In this document: positions 25,248 to 28,709 of the stretch, in pieces
How positions within the stretch are numbered: the first letter of the stretch is position 1
Layout of the letters: each line of letters starts with the position of its first letter
From: Escherichia phage 121/2022-2B
Strand: one strand, 5' to 3'
Sequence record: OR958571.1
DNA length: 64,000 nucleotides
Position numbers and translations under genes: made by a program
Notes under the pieces: model-generated
What the model was told of the DNA's origin: nothing
What the model saw: only the letters and a program-made list of their open reading frames with translations
Databases searched by the model: none

Positions 25248-25802
25248 TCACTTTGAAATCATAGTTGGAATGACAGAATCAAGATAAGTCTTTAGCGCAA
25301 TAGCTTCGTCTTTGGTAAATGTGACAATATGTGCTCGAGAATCATCATTTTGGCGAACAAGTACGACATCGCCATCTTCATAAGAAGTCTTGACATCCAA
25401 AGTCGTAGTATAGTTTGCAGCTACTGGATTAATAATGTTAGCACCGCGATCTTTAGCCCATTGAAGTTTAGCCTTTTCGGGTGTTTCGACTGTTTCAGAT
25501 TCTAAGAATTCTTTCACCTTGGCAACGAATGTTGCCCAATTGTTGATAGAAAGACACATAAATTCAGTTTCAATATTACCGCCGTAAAGGCCACGATAAA
25601 AACGAACTTGGAGGTCGCTTGTAATATTAGTTACACCGGTAACTCCTGAGGGAGCATAAGATAAAATCGCAGCCAGTTCCATAGGAAGAATAGTAATACT
25701 ATCGTCTTCCTGCGTCAGAACGTATACATTATCACGTTTTTCGATAACCAGGTCACCGAACAAATCAGTTGTTTCAATTACAGCTTTCATATTATTTACC
25801 AA
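25248..25802 (-). CDS. hypothetical protein (paralog of the previous gene)
   Basis: 184-aa ORF. Confidence 0.5.
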   Translation of the reverse strand: MVNNMKAVIETTDLFGDLVIEKRDNVYVLTQEDDSITILPMELAAILSYAPSGVTGVTNITSDLQVRFYRGLYGGNIETEFMCLSINNWATFVAKVKEFLESETVETPEKAKLQWAKDRGANIINPVAANYTTTLDVKTSYEDGDVVLVRQNDDSRAHIVTFTKDEAIALKTYLDSVIPTMISK

Positions 25803-25977
25803 TTAAAGTTTCAATATAAGAATCAAGATTTACTTTAGCTTCTTCCATAAGAGTTTTGTATTTAATCTTGTTAGCATGTCCGGAGAAAGCTGATTCATCA
25901 ATAATTGTTGATGTATGAACAGCTTTACTATACGTCTCAATTAATTCTCTTAATTTAAAAGCCTGCTCACTTGTCAT
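25792..25977 (-). CDS. hypothetical small helical protein (EQ-KL-EL family)
   Basis: 61 aa starting MTSEQAFKLRELIETY. Confidence 0.45.
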   Translation of the reverse strand: MTSEQAFKLRELIETYSKAVHTSTIIDESAFSGHANKIKYKTLMEEAKVNLDSYIETLIGK

Positions 25978-26109
25978 TACATACTCCTCTGAATCATATC
26001 AATAATGTTATTTACCAAATTATAAGTAAACATTGGGTAATTATATTGAATCATCACATACACAACAAACAAAACTTTCATTCTCTTCTCCTTGGCAGTT
26101 GACAAGATT

Positions 26110-26139
26110 ACTATACCATAACCTTGCCAACTTGTAAAC
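26110..26139 (-). promoter_or_regulatory. T4-type early promoter
   Basis: GTTTACA, 17-bp spacer, TGGTATAGT. Confidence 0.5.
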
Positions 26140-26304
26140 CATTAAATGACGTTTTCGATAAAATTCTGAAGCTTTGTATGAGCATCAACCATGATTTTCA
26201 ATTCTTCTTTAGCGAAAGCCGTACCTCTTTCCCGAGCAGAATACTCATAGTCAGAAACTGCATTAGCATATTCTTCAATTAGCTTCATTAAAAACATCTG
26301 CTTT

Positions 26305-26499
26305 TCAGTTTTCATTATTCCACCTAATCATTTCAAGATATTGAACTAACTTAGCTTTGGATTTATCCAAATCTCTTTTAGCTGCTTCTATACCGTCGTA
26401 TGAATATCCTTCACAATGCTCAACTGCTAATTGATATGAATCTATTTCAATATCACGTGCTAATTTAATGATTTTTTCAAACTGTTCACGTGTTAGCAT
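26305..26499 (-). CDS. hypothetical small helical protein (EQ-KL-EL family)
   Basis: 64 aa starting MLTREQFEKIIKLARDI. Confidence 0.45.
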   Translation of the reverse strand: MLTREQFEKIIKLARDIEIDSYQLAVEHCEGYSYDGIEAAKRDLDKSKAKLVQYLEMIRWNNEN

Positions 26500-26501
26500 A
26501 C

Positions 26502-26705
26502 TTAAACTCTCGTATTATGATCGATAATTTCATCAAGAAACATATCTAACGCTTCTAAAGCATTATCAACTTTAGCTTCAAATTCTTCAATACCTTTATT
26601 TGCAATGCCTGATGAAAACCAAGCAAAGTCACTAAGTTCCTCATCTGCTTTACGAATTAAAGCTACCAATTCCTTAATTTTATCCGCTTGTTCGATACTA
26701 ATCAT
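26502..26705 (-). CDS. hypothetical small helical protein (EQ-KL-EL family; start set to ATG at 26705)
   Basis: Track ORF 26502..26741; internal start gives [17 protein letters not shown] and overlaps the upstream stop as TAATG. Confidence 0.4.
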   Translation of the reverse strand: MISIEQADKIKELVALIRKADEELSDFAWFSSGIANKGIEEFEAKVDNALEALDMFLDEIIDHNTRV

Positions 26706-26893
26706 TATTCCACCACATATGAAAGAGAGAATATTGCACATGCCATGTGAGTTGCAACTTCATCACACATATTATAGCGTTTCTTAAGAAGTTCTACAAG
26801 TTCTTCACTAGTAACTTCATCCATGTCGACGAAAAAATCACCATTAATGATGACGTAGATATTTCCTTCTTGATTGAGTGCTTCAATTTTCAT
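26705..26893 (-). CDS. hypothetical small protein (start set to ATG at 26893 with GAGGAG RBS)
   Basis: Track ORF 26705..26938 would begin upstream of the promoter -10; the internal ATG lies downstream of the predicted transcription start. Confidence 0.45.
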
Positions 26894-26921
26894 GATGTTC
26901 TCCTCTTTATCCGATAGTTGT

Positions 26922-26951
26922 ATAGTACCACAGCTCAAACGGAAAGTAAAC
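26922..26951 (-). promoter_or_regulatory. T4-type early promoter (cassette family)
   Basis: GTTTACT, 17-bp spacer, TGGTACTAT. Confidence 0.6.
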
Positions 26952-26966
26952 CGGTAAAATGAAAAA

Positions 26967-26984
26967 AGTCTCCCGAAGGAGACT
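26967..26984 (-). terminator. intrinsic terminator-like hairpin (UUCG loop plus U-run)
   Basis: agtctcccgaaggagact followed on the transcript by TTTTTCATTT. Confidence 0.6.
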
Positions 26985-26988
26985 AATG

Positions 26989-27375
26989 TTATTCGAGGGA
27001 AAGAAGATATTTACTCTGGTAAAACATTCCAGTAATATCATCTATCGTGCTTTGGATGGCTGGAGGCATTTCTTTATAAATGCTGTTAGATTGGTCTAGT
27101 ATGCGATCAATCATTTTAATTGTGTCGGTAGGAAGTTTACTGGCATCTGGAATTGAAGGTGTGTATTTTCTACCAGAATACCCCAAATATTGCTCACCAA
27201 ATTTATCAATCAAATCTGGTAACTCGGAGAAAATAAAATCGTATGCTTTGTGTCTAGCATAACTTTTAGTTTCAAAATGTGCAGAATGAAAATAAGCTTG
27301 TGCAGCCATTAATAAACCTAAGTATTCATCTGCCTTTGAAGGTTTTCCACTTTGTGAAAAGTCGCTGAATTTCAT
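26989..27375 (-). CDS. hypothetical protein (rI.1 position)
   Basis: 128-aa ORF whose start overlaps the rI stop. Confidence 0.5.
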
Positions 27376-27665
27376 TCAGTCTCCAATTTAATGTTCATAA
27401 TTCTAGCGTATGATTGTGCCATCTCCGCGCCTCGCTCTATACATTCAAAATCAGAAGAGCACGGGTCATTTTTATAGGTCGTTCTCATAAAACTATAGAA
27501 TTGTTCAGACGATTCTACGCTTTTATTTTCAAAAAGCATATAAACGTGCCTAATACCAGATTCCATAAATTTATCAAAATGAGGATCGACATTCGCTTCA
27601 ATCGATGGAGATAAAACAAATGACAATCCTAGCATGGCAAATAGTGCCGTTGCTTTTAAGGCCAT
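27372..27665 (-). CDS. rI: lysis-inhibition regulator RI
   Basis: 97 aa with N-terminal signal-anchor MALKATALFAMLGLSFVLSPSIEA; matches T4 RI as recalled. Confidence 0.8.
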   Translation of the reverse strand: MALKATALFAMLGLSFVLSPSIEANVDPHFDKFMESGIRHVYMLFENKSVESSEQFYSFMRTTYKNDPCSSDFECIERGAEMAQSYARIMNIKLETE

Positions 27666-27677
27666 AAAGGCCTCCTA

Positions 27678-27890
27678 TCATTTTTGTCCTGTATTTACTT
27701 TATGCCGATGTACGGCCTTAACTTTATCAAGGTATTTTTCAAAATTTCGCAATCTAGTATAGTCTGCCGGAGATTGGTTGAGTGATACTTCTCGACGCAA
27801 AGCTGAAATGATATTTCCAACTTCCCTACGAATTTCATCTAATTGAAGCACAGTAAGATTGCGAAGTTGCTTTTCAGTTAATTGTAGCAT
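27678..27890 (-). CDS. hypothetical small protein (rI.-1 position)
   Basis: 70-aa ORF between tk and rI. Confidence 0.45.
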
Positions 27891-27932
27891 ATATACCCCT
27901 TTAGTTAGATAAACCTATTTATAACTTTTGCA

Positions 27933-28514
27933 CTAACCGAGCTTTTTAGTTAATTCATTCCAATGTTTTCTACACAAAGAAACATAAATTTCATCACCAA
28001 TACAGATTTGATTACCTTCTTTAACTGGTGTTCCATCTTCCATTAATCGAGCTGTCATAATCGCTTTTTTACCACAATGACAAACTGCCTTTAGTTCAAT
28101 AAGTTTATCTGCAATCGCTAAAAGTTCTTTAGAACCTTCAAATAATTTTCCAGCGAAATCAGTCCTTAGCCCATAAGCCATAACAGGAACATTATATGTA
28201 TCAACAATTCGGCTCAATTGATGCACCTGTTCAGTTTTTAAAAACTGAGCTTCATCTACAAATACGCAATGAATATCTTTTTGTGCTTCAGCCCATTTAT
28301 AGAACTCGAAAATATCCATATCATCTGTAATAATATTCGCTTCCTGCTTAATTCCAATGCGAGAAACGACTTCACAGACAGAATCGCGAGTATCAATAGC
28401 AGGCTTAAGAACTAATACACTCATTCCACGTTCTTTATAATTATGTGCAGCAGTCAAAAGAGAAGCAGATTTTCCAGCATTCATTGCTGCATAAGTAAAA
28501 ATTAAACTCGCCAT
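27933..28514 (-). CDS. tk: thymidine kinase
   Basis: 193 aa; P-loop AAMNAGKS; C-terminal zinc cysteines (CHCG...CxxC). Confidence 0.9.
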   Translation of the reverse strand: MASLIFTYAAMNAGKSASLLTAAHNYKERGMSVLVLKPAIDTRDSVCEVVSRIGIKQEANIITDDMDIFEFYKWAEAQKDIHCVFVDEAQFLKTEQVHQLSRIVDTYNVPVMAYGLRTDFAGKLFEGSKELLAIADKLIELKAVCHCGKKAIMTARLMEDGTPVKEGNQICIGDEIYVSLCRKHWNELTKKLG

Positions 28515-28523
28515 ATCACCTTC

Positions 28524-28709
28524 TTAAAGCGTATTCACATAAGCTATTAATTCATTTTCTTTCTTATCAAACCGATCAGCAAATTCTTCCTGCTGTTCGG
28601 GAGATAGCGGGCCGTATTCATCATAAAAGGTGTTTGCTTCTGTATGCTCATCTAGAAGTTCATGGATAAGCTCAAACAATTTATCTTTTTGTTCTTTGCT
28701 TAGACTCAC
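28524..28709 (-). CDS. hypothetical small helical protein (EQ-KL-EL family)
   Basis: 61 aa starting MSLSKEQKDKLFELIHEL. Confidence 0.45.
   Translation of the reverse strand: MSLSKEQKDKLFELIHELLDEHTEANTFYDEYGPLSPEQQEEFADRFDKKENELIAYVNTL

Follow-up and report, generated by a model that had tools for sequence, protein, structure and literature searches.

Five DUF7438 genes in the early region of a T4-like phage

The 64,000-nucleotide stretch of DNA examined here (Escherichia phage 121/2022-2B, sequence record OR958571.1; hereafter the window) carries in its early region five small minus-strand genes whose products, 57 to 67 residues long, form a single family. The 4 kb surrounding these genes are 99.5% identical to Escherichia phage vb_EcoM_bov9_1 and match 698 phage records, nearly all of them T4-like; the window is a Tequatrovirus (T4-like) genome. 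Comparison with the T4 and G4498 annotations gives the order of the locus on the minus strand as nrdC.11 - mobD.x - rI.-1 - rI - rI.1 - tk - tk.x - vs - regB. A previous inspection of the letters alone (the sequence-only reading) had proposed a family of four small paralogues at this locus. All four open reading frames (ORFs) were recovered on the minus strand where that reading had placed them, and their paralogy is upheld below. The count is not, as a fifth member at 26142-26315 had been overlooked. The five genes are the following.

25792..25977, minus strand: member A, 61 residues, beginning MTSEQAFKLRELIETY; between mobD.1 and mobD.2
26142..26315, minus strand: member B, 57 residues, beginning MKTEKQMFLMKLIEEY; the intact form of T4 mobD.2a
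26305..26499, minus strand: member C, 64 residues; orthologue of T4 mobD.3, 98.4% identity
26502..26705, minus strand: member D, 67 residues; orthologue of T4 mobD.4, 79% identity
28524..28709, minus strand: member E, 61 residues, GTG start; directly upstream of tk, a divergent allele of T4 tk.2

Rather than being dispersed, as had been suggested, the genes form two clusters on either side of rI.-1/rI/rI.1/tk. Members A to D lie within 0.9 kb and are interrupted solely by the 34-residue mobD.2, and member E lies 1.8 kb from the other four, beyond the rI.-1/rI/rI.1/tk genes. Several of the genes are tightly packed. Member B overlaps the end of mobD.3 by 11 nucleotides, the ATG of member D overlaps the stop codon of mobD.5 (ATAATG), and the GTG of member E overlaps the upstream stop codon as GTGA. 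Such overlaps of start and stop codons among neighbouring genes (ATAATG, ATGTAATG and GTGA) suggest translational coupling.

Family membership and significance of the similarity

Profile comparisons demonstrate paralogy of the five genes within a single phage-specific family, catalogued as Pfam DUF7438 (PF24219) and as PHROGs 653, 4859 and 2758. The PF24219 model has 57 positions and a gathering threshold of 25 bits, and it matches members A to E end to end (model positions 1-56/57) with scores of 57.8, 57.5, 63.3, 59.2 and 69.6 bits and E-values of 1.4e-15, 1.8e-15, 2.7e-17, 5.3e-16 and 2.9e-19, respectively. Among the PHROG profiles, member A matches phrog_4859 (E 8e-39), member B matches phrog_2758, and members C and D match phrog_653. 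Smith-Waterman comparison against 1000 shuffles returned z values of 6.3 for A-D, 4.8 for A-B and 4.2 for A-E, and four of the ten pairs were not individually significant in this test. The family is therefore linked transitively, and profile methods are needed to demonstrate it.

When each subfamily was left out in turn, the HMMER profile of the remainder always ranked the omitted member first among the 919 other ORFs of the window, at E-values from 2e-7 to 0.2 (1.9e-7 for member A, 0.056 for the tk.2-like member and 0.2 for mobD.3). The same exercise with hhalign, built on a 48-sequence alignment, gave probabilities of 96-98.6% and E-values of 5.4e-9 to 8.9e-16 over 56-59 aligned columns; against the rest of the family, members A, B and C scored E-values of 9.5e-14, 5.4e-9 and 1.6e-15. 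The shared-family claim thus holds over the full length of the four ORFs originally proposed by Pfam, hidden Markov model (HMM) and hhalign comparison alike. The likeness is not confined to three or four residues, the circumstance under which that claim would have failed, as the profile matches span 56-59 columns.

HMM scans of all 923 ORFs in the window identified exactly five family members. Equivalent scans found no further members in T4 1-63 kb or 146-168.9 kb; the window corresponds by our estimate to approximately 32-96 kb of T4, and the interval of about 96-146 kb, mainly late structural genes, lay outside the scans. Two local candidates whose N-terminal LxxL helices look alike were rejected, namely the adjoining 58-residue ORF at 28706-28882 (hhalign probability 0.2%) and rI.1 at 27678-27890 (0.1%).

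The observation made from the sequence is correct, and the family that it describes is already catalogued. Family ORFs are present in the 1986 sequence of the T4 tk region (X04567) as ORF 59.7 and ORF 59.9, and T4 tk.1, tk.2, mobD.3 and mobD.4 have been placed together in phrog_653 (PMC11879866 supplement). The window proteins are direct members of the group that holds T4 Tk.1, Tk.2, MobD.3, MobD.4 and MobD.2a (DUF7438; PHROGs 653, 4859 and 2758), show no structural difference from it, and have many identical or near-identical counterparts in the databases. Our literature search met no mention of DUF7438, PF24219 or the PHROG identifiers, and just two papers were found to name a mobD.x ORF in the main text. 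What is added here to a family already curated as DUF7438 and phrog_653 is a corrected gene inventory, the anatomy of the hairpin and the exposure of two misleading database names.

Hairpin architecture and conserved residues

AlphaFold2 models were obtained for two of the five members, mobD.3 (member C), which was the weakest in the leave-one-out search, and the tk.2-like member E. Member C was modelled as a hairpin of helices 4-29 and 34-63 at a predicted local distance difference test score (pLDDT) of 94.9, and member E as a two-helix hairpin of helices 5-32 and 37-60 at a pLDDT of 91.6. For the two members modelled, these confident hairpins bear out the proposal that the proteins are helical. 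Modelling together with the end-to-end profile matches indicates that each member is a single-domain protein of 57-67 residues, predicted to fold as one antiparallel two-helix hairpin. Pfam, AlphaFold2 and hhalign accordingly support the structural part of the sequence-only reading, that of small paralogous helical proteins.

Conserved columns were taken from 28 family sequences with mutual identity below 60%. The start of helix 1 reads M-[IL]-T-x-E-Q-x-x-K-[LI]-x-x-L-[IV]-x-x-[ILY]-x-x-A, a Gly is conserved in the loop between the helices, and the end of helix 2 reads [LVF]-x-x-[SA]-x-x-x-L-x-x-[YF]-[LIV]-[END]-[ST]-[LI]. Hydrophobic columns are spaced as heptad a/d positions, at 7-11-14-18-21-25 of helix 1 and 47-50-54-57/58-61 of helix 2. 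Q7 takes one of the core positions, and columns 15 and 58 add hydrophobic residues at the hairpin's open end. The residues conserved across the family gather at this open end, and the tip differs in both sequence and length. From this arrangement we infer that the N-terminal motif is largely architectural, with the S/T as a helix N-cap, the E and K as an i/i+4 pair, and the Q, L/I and L on heptad core positions, packing on the conserved Y/F and L of helix 2.

The description of all members as acidic fits two of them. Net charges in the family are -1, -2, -3, -9 and -10, with isoelectric points (pI) of 6.06, 5.27, 5.04, 4.29 and 4.34. The strongly acidic members are only mobD.4 and the tk.2-like protein (net charges -9 and -10; pI 4.3, or 4.29 and 4.34), and the other three (pI 5.0-6.1, net charge -1 to -3) are near neutral. 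Acidity is therefore not a property of the family.

Variation of the gene set and distribution among phages

Relative to T4, the gene set of the window phage gains member A and an intact mobD.2a, lacks tk.1, and carries a tk.2 allele of 54% identity. Member A has no equivalent in the compared T4 locus. T4 mobD.2a is frameshifted into two pieces: the annotated 38-residue mobD.2a at 58.0-58.2 kb of T4 (L001 3997-4178) is the N-terminal piece of a DUF7438 gene, and the C-terminal piece (..SKEEMKIMVDAHTKLQNFIENVI) can be read in another frame. T4 therefore has a pseudogene where the window phage has an intact gene. In mobD.4, T4 differs from member D by a 7-residue deletion and by substitutions at the hairpin tip. 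The T4 counterpart of member E is tk.2 and not tk.1, which belongs to the family as well and is not found in the window. The genes that flank the divergent tk.2 and mobD.4 are 98-100% identical to those of T4, and those on either side of tk.2 reach 99-100%.

The individual paralogues are unevenly represented, with member A matched in 191 phage records, mobD.2a in 491, mobD.3 in 585, mobD.4 in 504, tk.2 in 739 and T4 tk.1 in 186. Matches to tk.2 are bimodal, 368 records having at least 95% identity and 291 less than 60%. Clustering at 50% identity leaves 37 representatives of the family among 1.84 billion proteins, and clustering at 90% leaves 124 clusters. Nearly all members belong to T-even-type phages infecting enterobacteria. 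In Citrobacter phage Merlin three copies occupy the same two positions, and distant members, set among small early-region genes, are found in the N4-like phage IME11 (early region) and in a Casjensviridae phage of Aeromonas. A scan of IMG/VR for more DNA copies yielded five loci only. These comparisons demonstrate that the family changes by gene gain, loss, pseudogenisation and allele replacement in two variable segments flanking the conserved rI.-1/rI/rI.1/tk genes.

One unusual relative was found on metagenomic contig SRR27947026_8630 (L009 5001-5354), where the N-terminal DUF7438 hairpin of a 117-residue protein (P0137) is followed by some 57 further residues. This C-terminal extension has no Pfam match. 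A DUF4325 gene stands next to the gene for P0137, within a series of small phage-like genes, and the neighbourhood gives no clue to function.

Selection on the hairpin

Orthologues differ from one another mainly at the hairpin tip and hardly at all at the open end. Ratios of non-synonymous to synonymous differences (pN/pS) are 0.08 for mobD.3 and 0.07 for mobD.2a, and neighbouring genes range from 0.03 to 0.15. In mobD.4, helix 1 has a pN/pS of 0.12 and the tip one of 0.54, and a value of 1.03 in helix 2 rests on just 7 synonymous differences; the tip of tk.2 reaches 0.74. The raised values at the tips (0.54-0.74) are below 1 and do not demonstrate positive selection. The proteins are real and constrained, and their tips are relaxed or diversifying.

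Expression and dispensability

Published data on the T4 orthologues demonstrate that they are transcribed early, made as protein and dispensable on laboratory Escherichia coli. In T4, both the RNA and the protein of mobD.3 and mobD.4 fall in the early class, and tk.1 and tk.2 combine early RNA with middle protein (PMC9697503 supplement). A mobD.5 promoter is reported to be active 3 min into T4 infection (PMC1702504). All T4 members were scored 'Not Fit', meaning no effect of knock-down on fitness, in the CRISPRi-ART screen (PMC11879866 supplement), and the nrdC.11-mobD.3 segment was lost from a viable genome-reduced T4 (PMC9825161). In the window, three candidate transcription signals lie near the family genes.

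26967..26984, minus strand: terminator-like hairpin (terminator scan), AGTCTCC-TTCG-GGAGACT followed by a T run; after rI.-1
26922..26951, minus strand: early-promoter-like site, GTTTAC, 18-nucleotide spacer, TACTAT preceded by TGG; upstream of mobD.5
26110..26138, minus strand: second promoter-like site, TTTACA, 17-nucleotide spacer, TATAGT with an upstream TG; between member B and mobD.2, upstream of member A

The terminator-like hairpin, which is also annotated in phage G4498, divides the tk/rI genes from the mobD.5-mobD.1 genes. The site upstream of mobD.5 (GTTTAC...TGGTACTAT) comes just after it and was read from the sequence, below the threshold of the consensus scan. Its position and the 100% identity of the MobD.5 protein suggest that it is equivalent to the T4 mobD.5 promoter, and transcripts from it would continue into mobD.4, mobD.3 and mobD.2a. 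The site at 26110..26138 scores 10/12 in the promoter scan, a consensus match that does not in itself indicate function.

Database names and searches for related proteins

No sequence or fold relative of known function was found in Pfam, the PDB by sequence, NCBIfam, Foldseek or BFVD. The BFVD matches were uncharacterised phage proteins only, Foldseek returned generic hairpins only, the PDB sequence search of the family gave nothing relevant, and NCBIfam gave no supported match. Two functional names are nevertheless attached to members in public records. Member A is called a 'helicase loader' by phrog_4859 and by RefSeq, and showed no homology to T4 gp59, DnaC/DnaI or lambda P in the domain searches; besides DUF7438, Pfam returned one insignificant PspC domain match for it at E <= 1, and NCBIfam returned none. 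This label appears to be an annotation artefact. RefSeq names mobD.4 'molybdopterin-guanine dinucleotide biosynthesis protein MobD', and the 67-residue protein contains no MobA/MobB-type nucleotidyltransferase or P-loop domain. Its only Pfam match is DUF7438, and its NCBIfam match, to the spore protein Tlp, is sub-threshold at 15 bits versus a cut-off of 73. The product name most likely derives from the T4 symbol mobD.4, which denotes an ORF adjoining the mobile endonuclease gene mobD. The misleading names have spread in RefSeq (NC_000866, NC_054918 and NC_027979).

The best Foldseek matches were to the dimerization and histidine phosphotransfer (DHp, or HisKA) hairpin of sensor histidine kinases such as HK853, at an E-value of 0.2 and 22-25% identity, which is not significant. 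The tk.2-type 'LIHELL' aligns on the H-box, and its His is confined to the tk.2 subgroup. Identity with HisKA/DHp was rejected, as the His column holds H in only 6 of the 28 non-redundant members, no Pfam HisKA match was obtained and the Foldseek E-value is 0.2.

Proposed role of the DUF7438 hairpins

We propose, at a probability of roughly 0.45, that the DUF7438 hairpins serve as stoichiometric binding modules in early host take-over, acting as accessory host-range or counter-defence factors. The earlier suggestion that these proteins bind host factors or oppose host defences is consistent with their context, to a similarly tentative degree. Hairpins of this kind would have no catalytic capacity; early in infection they would work as small modules that bind their partners stoichiometrically. 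Their conserved hydrophobic open end would probably pair into a four-helix bundle or dock on a helix of the partner. Each paralogue or allele might address its own host protein, or possibly one of the phage, and the variable tip would determine which; such a division of targets would make the proteins conditionally useful accessory factors. Early expression, the absence of a fitness effect in T4, patchy presence (186 to 739 records) and the divergent tk.2 allele fit this proposal circumstantially.

Small early phage inhibitors such as T4 AsiA, lambda Kil, T7 Gp0.4, T4 Dmd and T4 Arn act by stoichiometric binding. The DUF7438 proteins resemble them in being small, early, non-enzymatic and dispensable in permissive laboratory hosts, and differ in that our searches linked them to none of these inhibitors, either by sequence or by a specific fold. 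A more specific version of the proposal makes the family a set of modular counter-defence or take-over inhibitors, in which the open end is the scaffold or dimer interface, the hypervariable tip confers specificity, and an arms race proceeds through indels and allele replacement. We regard this version as unlikely; if it is true, the differing sets in T-even phages would contribute to host range.

Several points weigh against a binding role in host take-over. No partner, phenotype or oligomeric state is on record for any member. The variable tip could reflect a lack of constraint rather than specificity, with pN/pS below 1 wherever counts are adequate, and the conserved motif may do no more than maintain the structure. 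Data on expression and fitness belong to T4 and not to the window phage, member A having no T4 counterpart, and dispensability was measured solely in laboratory hosts. The pN/pS values come from a small codon sample (3-8 sequences) and uncorrected distances.

Among the alternatives, the hairpins could be accessory subunits or chaperones for neighbouring phage early proteins, such as the MobD.1-type putative transcription factors, Tk or rI.-1. Positions beside tk and downstream of rI.-1 are kept in distant Tevenvirinae, for example Citrobacter phage Merlin, and the start/stop overlaps with neighbouring genes, through the translational coupling that they suggest, point the same way. Against a phage-internal role of this kind, the N4-like and Casjensviridae members lack neighbours named like those of T4, most neighbours being unnamed hypothetical proteins, and copy number is variable while tk, rI and rI.-1 are 99-100% identical. 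A copy number that varies against constant tk, rI and rI.-1 argues against a one-to-one partner relationship, and we consider such a role doubtful.

The hairpin shape itself recalls Rop/Rom, the ColE1 RNA one modulator, and raises the idea that hairpin dimers form four-helix bundles which, by binding to structured RNA or DNA, regulate the replication or the early transcripts of the phage. We found no sequence relationship to Rop and no match to its Pfam family at E <= 1, and the fold match to it is just one among 1572 generic hairpin matches. Rop has a two-residue turn, whereas the DUF7438 hairpin has a longer, variable loop; DUF7438 proteins are acidic, in contrast to the RNA-binding character of Rop. 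Nucleic-acid binding is further disfavoured by net charges of -9 and -10 in two members, the lack of any basic member, and K10 being the sole conserved basic surface residue. A Rop-like regulatory function is improbable on these grounds.

The charge of mobD.4 and the tk.2-like member (pI 4.3, net charges -9 and -10), both of which are expressed early, could instead suggest acidic mimics of DNA, comparable to Ocr, ArdA and Arn, that obstruct restriction or other defence proteins which bind DNA. With three members out of five close to neutral (net charges from -1 to -3), no resemblance to known mimics found in sequence or fold, and one 40-Å hairpin being small for a DNA mimic, this explanation has very little room. 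That the genes are decaying or functionless filler ORFs, alike through shared helical composition, is largely refuted and the least credible explanation of all: the four of ten non-significant pairwise comparisons, the T4 mobD.2a pseudogene and the absent T4 fitness effect speak for it, and the significant full-length profile comparisons, pN/pS of 0.07-0.08 for mobD.3 and mobD.2a, detection of the T4 proteins by proteomics and retention of individual paralogues in 500-700 phage genomes speak against it.

T4 is the best-studied virulent phage, and about half of its genes are without a function. In DUF7438 it and its relatives have a multi-copy early family (4-5 copies per genome) without a known role, one that is subject to purifying selection and whose proteins are made. 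With its varying copy number and its divergent alleles between near-identical flanks, the family offers reasonable candidates for host-range or counter-defence screens.

Neighbouring genes and other features of the window

Between two DUF7438 genes lies mobD.2 (25977-26081, minus strand), which encodes a 34-residue hydrophobic peptide (MKVLFVVYVMIQYNYPMFTYNLVNNIIDMIQRSM) with no Pfam match and has the promoter-like site (26138-26110) ahead of it. Two tandem paralogues of T4 mobD.1 (24720-25241 and 25248-25802, minus strand) each match Pfam T4_y05I_N and T4_y05I_C ('y05I-like putative transcription factor'). T4 has one copy, and the window copy at 25248-25802 is merely 46% identical to T4 MobD.1. 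An ORF of 153 residues (24256-24717, minus strand), hydrophobic over long stretches and unmatched in Pfam, separates these paralogues from nrdC.11, and the T4 mobD homing-endonuclease gene is absent here.

The interval between tk.2 and tk.4 (28706-29309, minus strand) is mosaic relative to T4. It holds a 58-residue ORF (phrog_3452, no Pfam match), a 70-residue Cys-rich 'Phage zinc binding domain' protein (PF23895) and a 71-residue DUF7202 protein, where T4 has tk.1, tk.2 and tk.3; the flanking tk and tk.4 are 99% identical to T4.

Elsewhere in the window, GC skew goes from negative to positive at about 44000-46000, which is presumably the switch from minus-strand early genes to plus-strand genes. 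Ten tRNA genes (Arg, Asn, Tyr, Met/CAT, Thr, Ser, Pro, Gly, Leu and Gln) occupy 39103-39930 on the minus strand and account for a local GC peak of 0.43. T4 has 8 tRNA genes, so that the window would have two more.

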